Assembly (NCBI GenBank): GCA_963698075.1
Contig: OY969116.1
Span: 313,010 to 377,009, forward strand
Length of the DNA stretch: 64,000 nt
From: an uncultured Candidatus Berkelbacteria bacterium
GTDB taxonomy: Bacteria > Patescibacteriota > UBA1384 > UBA12157 > JAENIV01
Direction of reading: 5' to 3'
Positions 3,912-61,820 of this stretch are shown in pieces (the first letter of the stretch is position 1; each line of letters begins with the position of its first letter). The notes under the pieces were generated by a model. That model was not told the origin of the DNA and made no database searches. It worked only from the letters and a program-made list of their open reading frames with translations. The translations under genes and the position numbers were made by a program.

Positions 3912-5144
3912 TTAGGATGTGGCGATGCTAGCGTGCTCTTCGATACTAGCGTAAGGAAGGAAGGGCTCGACCCACTCCTCGACAGGTCTGGCGTCGAAGA
4001 TATTCCGGCGCAATAGCCGGTTGCCAACGGTTCCGATTGCCTGCTCCATCATCCAGACGGACTGGCGAGTGGCTTCCTCGATCTGCTGGTCAGTCACATA
4101 CTGGTTGATGTAATGGAGCCAGTCGTCCCCGTGGTCTCGCATTGCTGATTCCTTGGCCGCGTAGATCCCCTGTGCCCGGAAGACCGCGCGCTGGATCTCT
4201 TTATTCGCGGGAATCAGGTAATTGATATCACCTCGAGCGTAGGGAACTGCCAGGCGATTTTCATCGACCGTACAGGCGAAATCGCCGAAGCGTCCAGCGG
4301 CTTCCTCGACTTTGCCATCAATGTTGTCGATGCCCGCAGCCCGACAGAACGCGCGTTGATGATGGGCATTGCGCACTAACGTGGCCTGCCAGGCGGTGAA
4401 GGACAGATCGTCGAGATGCATGAAGCGCTGAGCTTCCTCGGGGGTGATGTCCTTATCGCCGGCCGGATCGTACTTTGCGTTGAAACTGATCGCCGGTTCA
4501 TCCATGAGGAATCCAGGGTTCGGAATCCGGTCGAGGTTGGCGTCGGCGAATACCTGCCGCATCTTGGGATCTTCCATGATTCCAGGAATCGCCCGAATCT
4601 CGTCGAGCCCGACGACCGTCTCGTCATAGGTCGCCAACTGCTCATAGCGATTCCCCATGCCCGCGGCGTTGAAGATCCGTTTGAATGTTGAGCTGCCGAG
4701 CGGGAAGCCGAACCGGAAGATGCATTCGGCGTCCGAGACGAAGGTCGTTATATGGCCGGCTGCGATGAGGCGGTGGTAGATGGCGCGGCTCTCGACAGTG
4801 AGAACGTCGCTGAGGATGTATGGGGTGGCCGCCAACCGCATAACCACCTTGTTGCTCTTCTCTCCTCGGTCAAGGAGAGTCCCGACGGTAACGACCTGGT
4901 CGCCATGATCCAGCATGCCGACGTAGGTGCTCCGGAACCCGGCCTTAGCCGCTTCTTCCCAGTAGTATGCCGCGGTCATCGCGAGGACATATCTCTTGCC
5001 ACGTATCTCCTGTGATGGAATCTTCTTCTTGAGATCGGCGACCGAGAAGCGCCCGCTGACGATCCACGGTCCGATGCCCAGGTACCAAAGCCCGGGCGCC
5101 ACGAATTGCGGCCAGGTTGGATCCAAGTCCTTGACGCTACCCAT
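3912..5144 (-). CDS. ATP-dependent purine-pathway-type ligase (PurP/FAICAR-synthetase-like or PurC-like); GC-rich, assignment uncertain
   Basis: 410 aa; segments YVLAMTAAYYWEEAAKAGFRSTYV and GMGNRYEQLATYDE resemble archaeal PurP (TIATLGSH..KGAKxEGFxTV; GARGGRGYFIA). Partial resemblance to SAICAR synthetase also noted. GC about 58% against the low-GC background. Confidence 0.3.
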   Translation of the reverse strand: MGSVKDLDPTWPQFVAPGLWYLGIGPWIVSGRFSVADLKKKIPSQEIRGKRYVLAMTAAYYWEEAAKAGFRSTYVGMLDHGDQVVTVGTLLDRGEKSNKVVMRLAATPYILSDVLTVESRAIYHRLIAAGHITTFVSDAECIFRFGFPLGSSTFKRIFNAAGMGNRYEQLATYDETVVGLDEIRAIPGIMEDPKMRQVFADANLDRIPNPGFLMDEPAISFNAKYDPAGDKDITPEEAQRFMHLDDLSFTAWQATLVRNAHHQRAFCRAAGIDNIDGKVEEAAGRFGDFACTVDENRLAVPYARGDINYLIPANKEIQRAVFRAQGIYAAKESAMRDHGDDWLHYINQYVTDQQIEEATRQSVWMMEQAIGTVGNRLLRRNIFDARPVEEWVEPFLPYASIEEHASIATS

Positions 5145-5163
5145 CGTTTCCTCCTTGCCTTTC

Positions 5164-5736
5164 CTAGCGTTGACCGGCTACCGCATTACCGGCCAAAACG
5201 ATGGCCTCATCCAAGAGTAGTACTTCGACCGGACGCGGCTTGGGAAGCTTGACCTCGGGGAGTTGTCCCTTGATGGCAAACCTGCAGGCACGCAAGAAAC
5301 CCTCGGATCCGACGAACGTGCGGATACCATCACCACTAACCACCTGGGTTCCTGGGACTTCCGTTATAGACAGCTTCGCTGCCAAGGTATGCTTGTTGTT
5401 GCTTGGATCTTCGAACGCTACTCCTACCACGATAATATGAGTGTCATTAAGAGAGTAGCGCAGATATGAATCGCATATCCCCGTGAGGTGATTTGCCCAT
5501 CCCGCCGCCGTTAACAGAACGTCGATTGGCGGCTTCATTTTGCTCAGAGACTCCAGATGAGCAAGCGTCTCCCGCGTTACACGATGGATGCTACTAGCCC
5601 GGATATCGATGAGCTCGATTTCCCCGTGCTTCTTGGCCGTTGCGAGCAACTGAAGGCCATCAAGGCACTGCTTGAGATCGGACTTTGAACCAACTATTAC
5701 AGCGATTCTTCTCATGCCGTGTTTTCCCTCCATCAC
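5164..5736 (-). CDS. PurE-like (AIR carboxylase / N5-CAIR mutase fold) protein, GC-rich
   Basis: IAVIVGSKSDL (GSxSD motif) and LLTAAGWANHLTG (AGxAAHLPG-like) match PurE-family signatures. Confidence 0.5.
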   Translation of the reverse strand: MMEGKHGMRRIAVIVGSKSDLKQCLDGLQLLATAKKHGEIELIDIRASSIHRVTRETLAHLESLSKMKPPIDVLLTAAGWANHLTGICDSYLRYSLNDTHIIVVGVAFEDPSNNKHTLAAKLSITEVPGTQVVSGDGIRTFVGSEGFLRACRFAIKGQLPEVKLPKPRPVEVLLLDEAIVLAGNAVAGQR

Positions 5737-8412: not shown

Positions 8413-8964
8413 TTAATCCCCCAAAGGCAAAGTCTTTATTAAAGTATGTTTCGGCCCATCGCTTAAGAGTTCAGATTCGAATAGGATAATTTCTTTTACC
8501 GGAAAACAAGGAAAATCTTTTTTGGATATCTTATTGACAATATTTTCAAGATTTCTGGATTTTTTTATTCTGGCAAAAGTGACATGTGGCTTGAATTTGC
8601 GTGAATCATCAAACTGGATATCAGCCGCCTTCAAAATTTTACTGATTTTTTCTTGAAAATGAATAATTTCTTCATTTTCCTTAAAGCCCACCCAAAGATT
8701 ATGAGGTTTTTCTAAATTCGGAAACCCGCCTAAATTCAAACAAGTTAGCTTTAGTTTTTCAGATCTAATTTTTCCCAAAGACTCCACAATTTTTGGAATC
8801 AAAGTATAGTCTGTATCACCTAAAAAAACCAAAGTCAAATGGATATTTTCCGGTTTAACCCATTTGGCGTCAACACCAGCTGATTTCAATTCTTCCTGAA
8901 TCACCCTGATTTTTTGTTGAATTTCGTCGGGGATTTCAATCGCCACGAACAATCTCTTTTTCAT
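8413..8964 (-). CDS. thpR: RNA 2',3'-cyclic phosphodiesterase (2H phosphoesterase, LigT/ThpR)
   Basis: Two HxT/S motifs: HLTLVFLG and HVTFAR. Confidence 0.7.
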   Translation of the reverse strand: MKKRLFVAIEIPDEIQQKIRVIQEELKSAGVDAKWVKPENIHLTLVFLGDTDYTLIPKIVESLGKIRSEKLKLTCLNLGGFPNLEKPHNLWVGFKENEEIIHFQEKISKILKAADIQFDDSRKFKPHVTFARIKKSRNLENIVNKISKKDFPCFPVKEIILFESELLSDGPKHTLIKTLPLGD

Positions 8965-9017
8965 GGCTTCATTTTACCATATCTGTTATAATGAATAAAG
9001 AAATCACAAATAAATTG

Positions 9018-9168
9018 GGAGCGAAGCCAAGTATCCTCAAAAGTGGCTATCGCAGGCCAAAAAGCATGGTTCCGAGGTAATCCGAGGATTTTTGGCCGAG
9101 ATCGCAGGCACCGATTGCGCGCTGGAGCAATCGTAGTGCCGGCATCTTTTGACGGATACTGGCGAGCG
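9018..9168. mobile_element. MITE-like element copy 1 (intergenic), imperfect terminal inverted repeats
   Basis: Ends GAGCGAAGCCAAGTATCCTCAAAAGT ... ACTTTTGACGGATACTGGCGAGCGA are shared with the copy at 16621-16749. Core is GC-rich with internal direct repeats (atcgcaggc x2, tccgagg x2). Confidence 0.5.
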
Positions 9169-9173
9169 ATATT

Positions 9174-10058
9174 ATGAAAGAATGCTACCTCTATCAAAAA
9201 TCAGGCGATTACACCGTTTGTGCTACTTGCAACCACCGCTGTCGGATTGCGCCTTATAAACGCGGTATTTGTGGAGTAAGAGAGAATCAGCAAGGAAAAT
9301 TACATCTTTTAGTCTATGGTCGAATTATTGCTGAAAATATTGACCCAATCGAAAAAAAGCCCTTGTATCATTTTATGCCCGGAACTTCCTCTCTTTCTAT
9401 CGCCACTGTTGGCTGTAATTTTCGTTGTCTTTGGTGCCAAAACTGGGATATCGCCCAATGCACTAAAGACAATGCCGACCGCACCGAAATTACCAGTAAA
9501 ATGGGCATTGAAATGGAACCGGAACAAATAGTTGAAGACGCCAAAAAATACGGCTGTCCCTCAATTTCTTATACTTATACTGAACCGACAATTTTTCTCG
9601 AATTTGCCTTAGATACCATGAAACTGGCAAAAAAAGCGGGTCTAAAAAATGTTTGGGTCTCCAACGGCTATATGACAACGGAGACACTTGATTTAATCAC
9701 GCCATATCTGGATGCGATTAATGTAGATTTAAAGGGATTTAGCGAAGAAAATTATTTAAAATATTCCGGGGCCAAGTTACAGCCGGTCCTAGATAATATC
9801 CGCGAGATCTATAAACGCAAGATCCATCTTGAAGTCACGACTTTGATCGTCCCAGGGGTTAATGATGACGAAAAACAACTAAATGATATCGCCCAATTTC
9901 TCGCCTCGATATCAAAAAACATTCCCTGGCATATTTCCCGGTTTTTCCCAGCCTACAAAATGCCCGATACACCGGTAACGCCCATTGAGACCTTAGAACT
10001 GGCCGAAAAACTTGGCAAAAAAGCTGGTTTAAAGTATATTCATTTAGGAAATATTTAA
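9174..10058 (+). CDS. AmmeMemoRadiSam system radical SAM enzyme
   Basis: CNFRCLWC CxxxCxxC motif; PFL-activase-like architecture; immediately followed by Memo-like and AMMECR1 genes. Confidence 0.7.
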   Translation: MKECYLYQKSGDYTVCATCNHRCRIAPYKRGICGVRENQQGKLHLLVYGRIIAENIDPIEKKPLYHFMPGTSSLSIATVGCNFRCLWCQNWDIAQCTKDNADRTEITSKMGIEMEPEQIVEDAKKYGCPSISYTYTEPTIFLEFALDTMKLAKKAGLKNVWVSNGYMTTETLDLITPYLDAINVDLKGFSEENYLKYSGAKLQPVLDNIREIYKRKIHLEVTTLIVPGVNDDEKQLNDIAQFLASISKNIPWHISRFFPAYKMPDTPVTPIETLELAEKLGKKAGLKYIHLGNI

Positions 10059-15926: not shown

Positions 15927-17433
15927 TGAGAAACTTTCCGAGGCGACAAGTAAAGTCACCTCTTTTGTGCAAGATTCTAATGAGCTTAAAAAACAAATCC
16001 GAAATATGGTGGCAATCCTGCGCCAAGAAGGCGGTATTGGTCTGGCTGCTAACCAATTGGGTTATGATAATCAAGTCCTAGCTATTGAATTTAAGGAATC
16101 TGATCAAAAGTCTTCTAAAAAGTCCTCGAAAAAAAATGCGGAAAAGACGGAAATCCCTTTGACAATTTTTGTAAATCCCGAAATTGTCGAATACGGGAAA
16201 ACAATTGAATGCTTTGAAGAGGGATGTCTTTCGGTGCCTAAAATCGAACTTGAAGTTGAGCGGCCGACCCAAATTAAAATTAAATATCAAAACGAAAAAG
16301 GGAAAAAAATCAAAGCCGCCCCCAAAGGTTTGCTCGCCCGCATCCTTCAGCATGAAATTGATCATCTGGGTGGCATCATCTTTACCGAACGTGTCAGAGA
16401 GCAGTTTTTTCAAAAATACCCAGAGTTGAAAAAACTAAAAATCGCATTTTTCGGTAGCGGAGAGTTTGGGGCTATCATTTTAGAAGGTTTAATCTTACTT
16501 GGGCTGAATCTCGATATCTATACGGAAAAATCAAAACCGGCCGGCCGCAGCCAAGTAACTCGCGCGACGCCCGTGGCAGAAGTGGCTAAAAAGTTTGGAA
16601 AAGATTATTTTGAAGTAGAAGCGAGCCAAGTATCCTCAAAAGTAAATCGCGGAGGCGAGCCGCACGGACAAGGGCGAGCCGAGCGTTTAGACCCGATTTC
16701 CTCGCAGGGGAAATCGAGGTCGGTACTTTTGACGGATGCTGGCGAGCGACCATTTGATTCTCTCGTCTGTGTTGATTTTGGTCAAAAAATCCCCGAATCG
16801 ATATTAAAACAAGCCAAAATTGCCGCCCTCAATATTCATCCCTCGCTTTTACCAAAATATATCGGCCCGACACCAATTCAAACGGCGATACTTAATGGCG
16901 ATAAGAAAACTGGCGTGTCAATTATTCAAATGACCGATAAAATTGATCAAGGCCCGCTTTATTCCCAAATTGAAACGGAAATTCTCGAAAACGATACCAC
17001 ACCCCTTCTCCACGACCGCCTCGCCACTTTGGGTCTAAAATTATTAATCAAAACCTTACCCAAAATCGTCCGTGGCGAAATCGAAACTGTCAGTCAGGAT
17101 TTATCCAAAACGATAAGGACGCGCAAATTCACTAAAGCCAATGGTGAAATTGACTGGCGAAAATCCCCCAAAAAAATTGATGCCAAAATCCGCGCCTTTT
17201 CCCCTTGGCCGGGTTCGTATACCCGCCTGCCAGCGCCTGAAGCCGCAGGCAATGGCGGGCAGGCTTTCGTCGATAATAAACGCCTAATTATCCACAAAGC
17301 TCATATTAAAAAAGACAAATTAGTTCTCGACATAGTTCAGAGTGAGGGCAAAAAACCAATGAAATTTTCTGAATTTTTACGCGGCTTTCACGGTCCAAAA
17401 CCGGAGTGGTTTAGGAAAGTATTATTGACATAA
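15895..17433 (+). CDS. fmt: Peptide deformylase - methionyl-tRNA formyltransferase fusion (single 512-aa ORF)
   Basis: N-terminal GIGLAANQLG, EGCLSVP, QHEIDHLGG (PDF motifs). C-terminal IAFFGSGEFG ... NIHPSLLPKYIGPTPIQ ... WRK..FSPWPG (Fmt). No stop or start between the two parts. Overlaps the upstream GT4 gene by 32 nt. Confidence 0.75.
   Translation: MKEPSIITVPNEKLSEATSKVTSFVQDSNELKKQIRNMVAILRQEGGIGLAANQLGYDNQVLAIEFKESDQKSSKKSSKKNAEKTEIPLTIFVNPEIVEYGKTIECFEEGCLSVPKIELEVERPTQIKIKYQNEKGKKIKAAPKGLLARILQHEIDHLGGIIFTERVREQFFQKYPELKKLKIAFFGSGEFGAIILEGLILLGLNLDIYTEKSKPAGRSQVTRATPVAEVAKKFGKDYFEVEASQVSSKVNRGGEPHGQGRAERLDPISSQGKSRSVLLTDAGERPFDSLVCVDFGQKIPESILKQAKIAALNIHPSLLPKYIGPTPIQTAILNGDKKTGVSIIQMTDKIDQGPLYSQIETEILENDTTPLLHDRLATLGLKLLIKTLPKIVRGEIETVSQDLSKTIRTRKFTKANGEIDWRKSPKKIDAKIRAFSPWPGSYTRLPAPEAAGNGGQAFVDNKRLIIHKAHIKKDKLVLDIVQSEGKKPMKFSEFLRGFHGPKPEWFRKVLLT
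16621..16749. mobile_element. MITE-like element copy 2, 129 bp inserted in-frame within fmt
   Basis: GCGAGCCAAGTATCCTCAAAAGT ... ACTTTTGACGGATGCTGGCGAGCGA. Adds 43 codons (ASQVSSKVNRGGEPHGQGRAERLDPISSQGKSRSVLLTDAGER) between DYFEVE and PFDSLVCVDFG, the position where E. coli Fmt has a short linker. Confidence 0.5.
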
Positions 17434-60743: not shown

Positions 60744-61820
60744 TTATCCGACGCTTCCCAGATCGGCGTTGCGCAAGTCTTCGGCGGCATGCTCAGGTGT
60801 GCGGGGATTGATGTAGGCGCCCGAGCCCTTCTCGAGGGCCGCCAGAATTGCTTCGGTGATTGGTTCGATCTGACAATGCCAATGATAGGTCTCTAGCTCA
60901 GTGTCGGTGGGAGGGGCAGTGTGGAAGTAGAGGTTGTAGTCAGGGTCGTTGAGTGTTACCCGAATCCTCTTCAGCGTCTCCTGTAGCAACAAGGCGAATT
61001 CCGTCAGAAGGTCGGCTCCTTGAGGATGGGTCGAGATGTTGGCAAAGTAGCTCTGGTGATACCGCGGTCCCACAATAACCTGATAAGGCGTCCTTGAGGT
61101 GAAGGGACACCAAGCCATGAAGTTTTCGGTGACATTGATCAACCGTTCCTTGGCAAGCAGTTCCCAATCTCTCTCCTCACAGTAGAAACAGGAGCGATTC
61201 AGGTCATAATAGTGCCGGGCGCCTGCCAACTCATGGTAGATCCGCGCTGGCAATGTCGGTAGCGCCACCAACTGGCTGTGGGGATGGGGTTGGCTGGCGC
61301 CAGCGAGCGGTCCATAATTCTTGAAGAGAAAGATGCAGTGGATGTTCCGTTTACTTCCGATTGCCAAGGTCATCTCCCGCCACATGTGCAAGACTTCGCG
61401 GAAGTAGAAGGGGTCGAGAGTCTCAAGAGCAACATCGTGTCGAGGTGATTCGATGATGACATAGTGGAAGCCGAAAGCCGGCAATACCGTAAACGGTCCA
61501 CGCTTCTCCACCACCAGAATCTCTGAAGGAATCGAGGCGTTCACTGCCGGCGCTAGGTTCGGTACGACTCTCACCCACCAGCCAGGATTGTCTGCCTTCG
61601 TCTCTTTAGCACGATAGGAACTTACTTCCTTCGGGGTCTGGCTCTCCCGACCCTCTTCGAAAGAACACTCTTCGCCGCTGACGAGGCGCGGGTTGAACCT
61701 GGACCAATCGCGCTCTTTCTGCCGCCGTAACTTCTCCAACGGCTTCTCCCGGTCTGAACCGATGATCACCAGCGTCCCCGAAATCGGGTTCCTTCTTAGC
61801 TCTTCCACACGACCTGGCAT
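60744..61820 (-). CDS. galT: Galactose-1-phosphate uridylyltransferase-like (GalT/HIT superfamily) protein, GC-rich
   Basis: SQPHPHSQL matches the GalT HPH active-site motif. CFYCE..C/H zinc-site-like residues. ATG 61820 with aggagg SD. The track ORF's upstream 71 residues read through tRNA-His and are artifactual. Confidence 0.55.
   Translation of the reverse strand: MPGRVEELRRNPISGTLVIIGSDREKPLEKLRRQKERDWSRFNPRLVSGEECSFEEGRESQTPKEVSSYRAKETKADNPGWWVRVVPNLAPAVNASIPSEILVVEKRGPFTVLPAFGFHYVIIESPRHDVALETLDPFYFREVLHMWREMTLAIGSKRNIHCIFLFKNYGPLAGASQPHPHSQLVALPTLPARIYHELAGARHYYDLNRSCFYCEERDWELLAKERLINVTENFMAWCPFTSRTPYQVIVGPRYHQSYFANISTHPQGADLLTEFALLLQETLKRIRVTLNDPDYNLYFHTAPPTDTELETYHWHCQIEPITEAILAALEKGSGAYINPRTPEHAAEDLRNADLGSVG

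Follow-up and report, generated by a model that had tools for sequence, protein, structure and literature searches.

The 64-kb stretch analyzed here (hereafter the window), from an uncultured Candidatus Berkelbacteria bacterium, carries two copies of a dispersed, highly structured repeat that we call R1, one situated between genes (9021-9169) and the other (16620-16749) inserted in frame in the formyltransferase part of a def-fmt fusion gene. We lean toward reading R1 as a non-autonomous, structure-dependent repeat element of Berkelbacteria resembling the Rickettsia palindromic elements (RPEs) and the repetitive extragenic palindromes (REPs) of other bacteria. R1 is dispersed, with presence/absence differences between close relatives, and it behaves like an RPE, a REP, or a miniature inverted-repeat transposable element (MITE) in being palindromic, non-coding, co-transcribed with its neighbors, and translated where it lands in tolerant loops. 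Copies were gathered from orthologous fmt genes and, by exact-pattern scans, from GTDB representative genomes (52 matches to the right-terminus pattern, of which 2 were genuine) and a metagenome collection (36 matches, approximately 22 genuine); a covariance model (CM) added three more diverged copies, giving a total of 22 distinct copies of 128-175 nt at 12-13 distinct sites, all on Berkelbacteria/Patescibacteria contigs and all without coding capacity. The small palindromic element proposed by a first-pass annotation of the window is therefore a member of a dispersed family. In the following, "L" numbers refer to contigs or loci of relatives and "P" numbers to the orthologous proteins compared.

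Within the window, the left terminus GCCAAGTATCCTCAAAAGT occurs exactly twice (9026 and 16625; approximately 0.04 occurrences expected with 3 mismatches allowed), as does the right terminus CTTTTGACGGATRCTGGCGAGCGA (9146 and 16726; 0 expected), and the two copies have matching ends of 19 nt on the left and 24 nt on the right. A CM search of the window with filters off returned only these two copies, at 147 bits for the intergenic and 131 bits for the fmt copy; a third match (61209-61310, 15.5 bits), on the opposite strand within a GalT-like open reading frame (ORF), was taken as chance. All R1 copies fold on one strand into one three-way junction, composed of a closing helix (P1) and two hairpins (P2 and P3). 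P1, of approximately 24 bp, is formed by the two ends and has one bulged base on each strand and an invariant GCGAGC/GCGAGC base pairing as G-C, C-G, G.A, A.G, G-C, and C-G, i.e. with a tandem G.A. Because the two GCGAGC hexamers pair antiparallel, the ends of the element resemble a direct repeat; the GAGCGA/AGCGA strings at its outer ends were considered as a target duplication and rejected, as they are internal to the element and form the base of P1. P2 varies in length and carries a GCAUGG motif, P3 is a hairpin with a CGCUGG loop, and the junctions read GAG...(U/C)AG and CGG(U/C)(A/G).

The R1 fold is preserved by paired mutations across long evolutionary time. RNAalifold predicted 39 pairs from 19 copies, 26 of them with compensatory changes; in the 22-copy alignment, 96.3% of cells are paired and 30 of the 39 pairs are compensatory, versus 3-8 in controls in which pair partners were slid by 1-3 columns, and no shuffle attained the observed pairing or covariation values. 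The pairs are almost wholly Watson-Crick. In P1, 13 of 19 pairs have changed on both sides with 98.6% of cells paired, and the P3 helix covaries as well (G-C to A-U in 9 of 22 copies, with like changes at other pairs). The sole terminus difference between the window copies, a G at 16738 versus an A at 9158, keeps its pair, as U.G versus U-A. Across sense and antisense copies, P1 and the base of P2 contain 8 G.U and 0 A.C pairs, indicating that the same R1 strand folds regardless of the direction of the neighboring gene. Even L058, L103, and L104, the copies that have diverged furthest, retain the asymmetric tandem G.A and the bulges. The minimum free energy is -64.1 kcal/mol (z = -6.0) for the fmt copy and -66 kcal/mol (z = -4.5) for the intergenic copy. 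The first-pass annotation had placed the latter at 9018-9168 on the strength of its termini, which are indeed the same, and the best placement is 9021-9169; its view that the two cores are unrelated in sequence did not hold, as they show 77% column identity and have in common P3, the junction motifs (GCCGAG, UAG/CAG, and CGG(U/C)A), and the loop CGCUGG within one conserved three-way-junction fold. No Rfam 15 family overlaps any R1 copy, either in searches of the whole window at gathering thresholds or in searches of both window copies and seven further loci at permissive E-values (E <= 10 and E <= 5).

The sites occupied by R1 follow a few recurrent patterns. In sense orientation and in frame, the element is found at one site inside fmt (window, L001, L003, L084, L058, and L104) and at one site inside tsaD (L073 and L103, with P1 compensated). 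Sense intergenic copies lie 4-22 nt before a start codon at 3/3 sites, preceding a radical-SAM gene (window), lexA (L071), and an ArnT-like gene (L065 and L072), and at one of these sites the copy is 7 nt ahead of a Shine-Dalgarno sequence. The right end of antisense copies, on the other hand, is 0-6 nt past the stop codon of the preceding gene at 8/8 sites, for example in the rplL-tgt, uvrC-tpiA, and recX-ppsA spacers and in glycosyltransferase operons, so that 5 sites are sense and 8 antisense to host transcription. The only common flank feature is an A directly 5' of R1 (18/18 sites), and no target-site duplication was found at the 18 sites examined. GC skew of the R1 loci, inspected for replication-strand bias, gave small values of mixed sign. 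L085 has two copies within 12.5 kb and L094 two within 9.5 kb, the maximum being two per contig; no copy was found in 21 kb of L102 and no significant one in 19.5 kb of L057, which together suggest a density of roughly one copy per 30-60 kb.

Evidence of gain and loss comes from closely related loci. The L085b site is occupied, whereas the same stop-to-start spacer in L086 has 26 nt and is traceless, with neighboring proteins approximately 90% identical. Subtype A copies at unrelated loci (fmt, recX-ppsA, and a glycosyltransferase spacer) are approximately 90% identical as read by eye, and one orthologous site carries different R1 subtypes in L065 and L072. All but three of the approximately 22 genuine right-terminus matches have a left terminus within 260 nt, the three right ends lacking one being at a contig end (L060), in an fmt relic (L067), and in a composite (L078), and no transposase lies between paired R1 ends in the exact-pattern scans of the two collections. 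Among viral contigs, the right terminus had 0 matches and the left terminus six, all chance. The mobile-element reading of the first-pass annotation is thus supported as far as dispersal and gain/loss are concerned, but neither a target-site duplication (18 sites) nor an autonomous partner was found. Two further observations concern the surroundings of R1-type copies. In the L078 composite (5520-5700), the R1 right end is intact, but the place of the left half of R1 is taken by a different GC-rich hairpin, GCGCCGAAGTGGTGTCC...GGGATACCACGAGGCGC. An AT-rich module of approximately 60 nt (CTAAAYY repeats, then CCAATGTTTAAATGACT) is found immediately 5' of R1-type copies at three loci (L085 5795-5855; L076, on the - strand, left of the element; and L078 5470-5540), where it spans the gap to the start of the next gene; it may be part of a longer element form or a portable promoter/leader.

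As initially noted from the sequence, the def-fmt ORF contains a 129-nt in-frame insert (16621-16749) in its Fmt part, which both the sequence and the domain assignment bear out; it encodes residues 243-285 (ASQVSS...TDAGER) between DYFEVE and PFDSLVCVDFG. The site had been described as a short linker but is more than that, being the beta3-alpha3-beta4 connection of the Fmt N-domain with an eroded ancestral helix; relative to solved Fmt structures, the insert and residual linker stand in place of approximately 22 residues between beta3 and beta4. AlphaFold2 gives a predicted local distance difference test (pLDDT) score of approximately 90 for the Fmt core and below 50 for residues 244-272, with VLLT (274-277) as a strand, so that the insert is modeled as a largely disordered surface loop on an otherwise confident core, in agreement with the surface loop proposed at the outset. 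Since the same insert occurs at the same fmt site in independent NCBI, ENA, JGI, and Logan assemblies, it is not an assembly artefact, a concern that had been raised for both of its boundaries. The predicted tryptic peptides of the insert are LDPISSQGK and SVLLTDAGERPFDSLVCVDFGQK, the latter crossing the junction.

The Def-Fmt fusion is common among Berkelbacteria, and 117 of these proteins were compared on a neighbor-joining tree built with the linker masked. Full elements are present in P0001, P0004, P0010, P0012, P0053, and P0060, which are spread over the Berkelbacteria tree. Most Berkelbacteria Def-Fmt proteins are approximately 450 aa long with a 24-30-aa segment at the site, i.e. element-free, in agreement with the empty site expected in orthologs. 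The ancestral linker is a 30-residue helix segment (ETDNIKKNIEAIKKINPDLI...); this helix (ETDNIKKNIEAIKKINPD) is eroded in the element-carrying clade, the element is absent where the helix survives, and in P0053 both halves of the ancestral linker still flank the element. Several other alleles retain relics of the element 3' end ("SVLLTDxGER"/"GER" type), namely SVLLTDVGERPFD in P0019 (confirmed in DNA), SVLLTDIREH in P0029, IGERQPD in P0033, the sister of full-copy P0060, and ERDFD in P0030, P0034, and P0035. With the same site occupied in at least 7 scattered Berkelbacteria lineages and relics in others, the fmt insertion is not recent, and the pattern fits a single ancient insertion followed by erosion and deletion. 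Separate clades (P0003, P0005, and P0021) have identical linker peptides, which suggests allele exchange or limits of the tree.

Whether the insert reaches the protein can be addressed by its reading frame. In three lineages (window, L001, and L084), the homologous ends enclose 129 nt, compared with 134 nt in L003; the frame of the latter is restored by ten additional nt upstream, and its left end is translated in a different frame. Because the frame of L003 is kept by read-through only, the fmt element is translated and not spliced. Every genic R1 copy is stop-free in the frame used, whereas intergenic copies usually have only approximately one open frame out of three, three copies having no open frame at all, and the relic alleles of P0019 and P0029 necessarily translate the element 3' end. 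These observations make it highly improbable that the insert is an intron-like RNA excised from the mRNA so that the 43 residues are never made, which is the least probable of the explanations considered. Such an RNA would account for a highly structured, GC-rich insert held at one site in an essential gene, and bacteria of the Candidate Phyla Radiation (CPR) are known for insertions in rRNA genes; however, excision at homologous points would shift the L003 frame, frame arithmetic rules out the two bulges and the helix base as splice points, no Rfam match to group I/II introns or small ribozymes was obtained, and 129 nt is far below known self-splicing intron sizes.

A functional extra Fmt loop, selected as protein, is hardly more credible. 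P0001, P0004, and P0012 do share nearly the same 43 residues, a finding that on the first-pass annotation's terms would have spoken against a mobile element, and the C-terminal VLLT, modeled as a strand, lies in the part that survives in relic alleles. However, the homologous DNA of P0010 and P0053 is translated in other frames into unrelated peptides, the left part appearing as ASQVSSKV in the window, SEPNALES in P0010, and ELLVPQSNS in P0053; as the peptide depends on the frame that each host uses, it is not the protein that is under selection, and what is conserved in the insert is its nucleotide sequence and structure. Moreover, the element is also found in intergenic spacers and in tsaD, its substitutions track base pairing and not codons, pLDDT is below 50 over most of the loop, and most lineages lack the insert.

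Other inserts were noted in the same proteins. In P0002, the fmt linker is occupied by another insert (L057 8706-8830), which is unrelated to R1 yet still highly structured; no other full-length insert at this position was left unassigned. It represents a GC-rich structured insert type that we call 'family 2' (peptide motif RVG..GSPNANG..RG); family 2 in addition fills the same tsaD loop in the TsaD of the source genome (P0134, outside the window), and the R1 model is blind to it. An alignment of Berkelbacteria TsaD proteins (330-450 aa) shows at least five insertion hot spots with lineage-variable, often GC-rich inserts. In the Fmt C-terminal domain of the window gene, a second in-frame GC-rich hairpin insert (17226-17270, residues approximately 445-458; CCGCCTGCC...GGCGGGCAGGC, peptide RLPAPEAAGNGGQA) has an AlphaFold2 pLDDT below 50; it is also present in P0005, longer in P0033, and missing from most orthologs. 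The def-fmt gene of L104 is called as two overlapping ORFs (4357-4617/4607-5905) with the break within the Def domain, reflecting a frameshift or an assembly error.

The second window copy stops 4 nt short of the ATG of the radical-SAM gene (9174-10058), and on its other side 56 nt separate it from where the divergently oriented LigT gene (8413-8964, - strand) starts. The spacer between these genes is 209 nt in the window versus 31-38 nt, element-free, in L003 and L057. In both relatives a TATAAT lies 9-10 nt upstream of the radical-SAM ATG (L003 1463-1495; L057 827-866), suggesting from the sequence that their radical-SAM mRNAs may be leaderless. The radical-SAM gene of L059, where the LigT neighbor is missing, is likewise not preceded by an element, and a TATAAT is located approximately 27 nt ahead of its ATG. 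The R1 copy and 23 extra nt would, in the window lineage, give the radical-SAM gene a leader of approximately 175 nt, and if the -10-like box TGTTATAAT acts as promoter, the R1 copy would be the 5' untranslated region of the radical-SAM mRNA. Neither a + strand promoter pointing outward nor a terminator was found in the copy itself, and -10-like boxes read by hand in AT-rich flanks were not counted as evidence.

How might such an element have spread? Top-strand polarity, the lack of target duplication, and a fold independent of host-gene orientation suggest that a folded single strand is recognized. R1 would then have spread, and perhaps still be spreading, with its top strand as a folded single-stranded intermediate, recognized in trans by an enzyme. 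The surviving copies would be the insertions that left genes functional, either in spacers by stop or start codons or in tolerant protein surface loops, where survival would require that frame and openness be kept. In the case of fmt, the element entered the beta3-alpha3-beta4 linker long ago, the ribosome reading through and adding a 43-residue loop, and its 3' end (SVLLTD.GER) now acts as linker in place of the eroded helix.

The RPE-like behavior proposed in the first-pass annotation is supported by the literature, since RPEs are palindromic non-coding repeats located between genes and in frame in housekeeping genes, whose proteins tolerate the translated segments at their surface (PMC10969869). 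The two are likened by behavior, both being approximately 100-150 bp in a small reduced genome, with R1 in frame in the unrelated housekeeping ORFs fmt and tsaD and its insert at pLDDT below 50 on a confident core. On the other hand, R1 belongs to a different phylum (CPR/Berkelbacteria), each RPE family encodes one conserved peptide whereas R1 frames vary by host, and R1 has a defined three-way junction (30/39 covarying pairs) and has been retained in distant orthologs at one and the same codon position. R1 also has several features of a MITE, being shorter than approximately 500 bp, non-coding, and dispersed, with terminal inverted repeats pairing over approximately 24 bp with conserved mismatches and bulges. 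Like Correia/NEMIS, ERIC, RUP, and BOX, it is small, transposase-free, and multi-copy, with inverted ends forming a long hairpin, co-transcription with neighbors, and presence/absence polymorphism; unlike them, it has no target-site duplication or known parent insertion sequence, it has low copy number and top-strand polarity, and its core is conserved and covaries along with the ends, whereas MITEs are conserved ends around free cores. Integron attC sites offer a further parallel as folded single strands of approximately 60-140 nt that are recognized by structure and not by sequence; their long stem likewise carries extrahelical bases, their terminal structure varies and is sometimes branched, and they directly follow the stop codon of the gene ahead. 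However, by inspection R1 lacks RYYYAAC/GTTRRRY core sites, its ends being AGCGA(A)GCC...GGCGAGCGA, it occurs at conserved syntenic housekeeping loci and inside coding sequences and not in gene cassettes, and no integrase was seen near it.

Similar in placement are the REP/REPIN elements with REP-associated tyrosine transposases (RAYTs), which are structured extragenic palindromes just past stop codons in operons. For both, recognition of a single strand by an HUH enzyme is plausible, and RAYT-like genes exist in sister genomes, although R1 is 3-4x longer, branched, and also found inside genes. A RAYT/Y1 transposase was ruled out as the mobilizer of R1, since the Y1 genes carry their own cognate 45-nt hairpins, which are unrelated to R1. 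In L003 and L057, these Y1 genes (PF01797) are located between the radical-SAM gene and the LigB/Memo gene, a position at which the window, like everywhere else along its length, has no Y1 gene, and the hairpins flank the genes of the relatives as a direct pair, TAACCATTTTC.GCCCAC...GTGGGT.AAAATGGTTA (L003 2852-2893 and 3588-3632; L057 2330-2376 and 3062-3108). We consider it unlikely that R1 is a palindrome-associated (PATE-like) element derived from an IS200/IS605-type transposon or another HUH single-strand transposon, moving as top-strand DNA cleaved beside the hairpin foot. The absence of target-site duplication at 18 sites, the top-strand polarity (8 G.U, or G.T in DNA, versus 0 A.C), a fold retained whatever the host-gene orientation, the invariant A 5' of the element at 18/18 sites, and the Y1 (HUH) transposase genes of related genomes are in line with such an origin. 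However, quite apart from the different hairpins of the Y1 genes, IS200/IS605 ends are separate subterminal hairpins as opposed to the one long closing helix of R1, no conserved tetranucleotide target was found, the single A being the sole fixed flank base, and there is no guide-like complementarity between flank and core (mean longest match of 5.3 nt with own flanks versus 5.0 nt with those of other copies).

Several observations weigh against R1 as a mobile, RPE/REP-like repeat. No mobilizing enzyme, autonomous partner, or target motif was found, and the RAYT-like Y1 transposases of related contigs are flanked by another hairpin. The copies in one genome are of different subtypes and not near-identical, so that no recent burst or gene-conversion homogenization is seen. 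Functional RNAs typically combine covarying helices with conserved loops and junctions, as R1 does. Orthologous fmt copies are an estimated 85-95% identical and fully folded, whereas flanking DNA is approximately 75% identical and the host proteins are only 54-68% identical (49-68% with the hosts of fmt and tsaD copies taken together); a selfish in-gene insert should decay, yet these copies persist folded, which points to selection in place, an effect for which selfishness alone does not account. Differences between the window copy and that of L001, a near-identical ortholog, fall in loops or yield wobble pairs, and the orthologous fmt copies of L003, L084, L058, and L104 are compensated.

Because orthologous copies stay conserved while their host proteins diverge, a host-functional module has to be kept as a serious, if less probable, alternative to the mobile repeat. 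R1 would in this case be a structured RNA or single-stranded DNA whose core is under purifying selection and which binds a trans-acting factor or tunes mRNA stability, processing, or translation rate, at approximately 15-30 sites per genome and in places overlapping coding sequence (dual coding in fmt and tsaD). In agreement with this possibility, the fmt (window, L001, L084, L003, L104, and L058) and tsaD (L073 and L103) copies keep all helices, the tandem G.A, the bulges, and the loop motifs, covarying helices occur alongside conserved loops and junctions, copies within a genome are not homogenized, and fmt alleles are either intact or near-completely deleted, with no full-length decayed R1 copy seen; the stereotyped placement by stop codons (8/8 antisense) and start codons (3/3 sense) points in the same direction. 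Nevertheless, mixed orientation (5 sense, 8 antisense) would demand an orientation-independent role for a cis-acting RNA, and single sites are dispensable, as most fmt and tsaD orthologs are element-free and L086 lacks the L085b copy. Stable hairpins in essential coding sequence would also be odd for a regulatory RNA, and neither an Rfam match nor a conserved partner gene near the copies was found. It is a tentative proposal that R1 represents a new class of structured module under purifying selection, dual-coding in fmt and tsaD, which might be a protein-bound RNA or single-stranded DNA with a role in the CPR cell or else the substrate of an unrecognized structure-guided, duplication-free mobility system.

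Table 1. Coordinates of the R1 copies, their helices, and associated features in the window
Feature	Position	Strand	Remarks
Extended -10-like box TGTTATAAT	8984-8992	+	Read by eye; homologous to the TATAAT of L003, L057, and L059
R1 element, subtype B (long P2)	9021-9169	+	Intergenic, sense orientation; CM 147.4 bits
Host gene, Def-Fmt fusion, 512 aa	15895-17433	+	PF01327 + PF00551 + PF02911 (Pep_deformylase, Formyl_trans_N, Formyl_trans_C)
R1 element, subtype A (short P2)	16620-16749	+	CM 131.3 bits; inside the Def-Fmt formyltransferase N-domain, in frame
P1 5' strand	16621-16644	+	GC, tandem GA, GCCA, bulged A (16629), GUAUCCUCAAAAGUA
P2 hairpin, short form	16648-16685	+	Second GCGAGC/GCGAGC tandem-GA module; apical GCACGG (consensus GCAUGG)
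P3 hairpin	16690-16721	+	GACCCGAUUUCC...GGAAAUCGAGGUC; loop CGCAGG (family consensus CGCUGG)
P1 3' strand	16724-16747	+	UACUUUUGA, bulged C (16733), GGAUGCUGGC, GA, GC

Elsewhere in the window, the spacer before infC (2741-2785) contains a small GC-rich three-way junction, with an AUCCUCC closing stem and two GC hairpins, which reaches -39.7 kcal/mol over 65 nt and is unrelated to R1 in sequence. A 54% GC island (3912-5736, versus approximately 41% for the genome) encodes two - strand genes (410 and 190 aa) and may have been acquired horizontally.

CPR bacteria have tiny genomes that are thought to be poor in repetitive DNA, and we found no description of palindromic elements or MITEs in CPR/Patescibacteria in the searchable literature or in Rfam. 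As far as can be told, R1 is thus an apparently undescribed family in a phylum without earlier reports of such elements. From an evolutionary point of view, its occurrence in intergenic spacers and in two essential translation-related genes, fmt and tsaD, reproduces the RPE phenomenon in an unrelated reduced lineage. It also shows that part of the protein-length variation of CPR bacteria stems from nucleic-acid elements and not from protein evolution, and such elements may be behind much of this variation in the genomes compared here. With a fold of unusually clear covariation and conservation far above that of the host gene, R1 is either a tractable case of how selfish hairpins survive within coding DNA or a new functional motif of RNA or single-stranded DNA, and its covariance model makes the selfish and functional readings testable on existing CPR genomes, metatranscriptomes, and metaproteomes.

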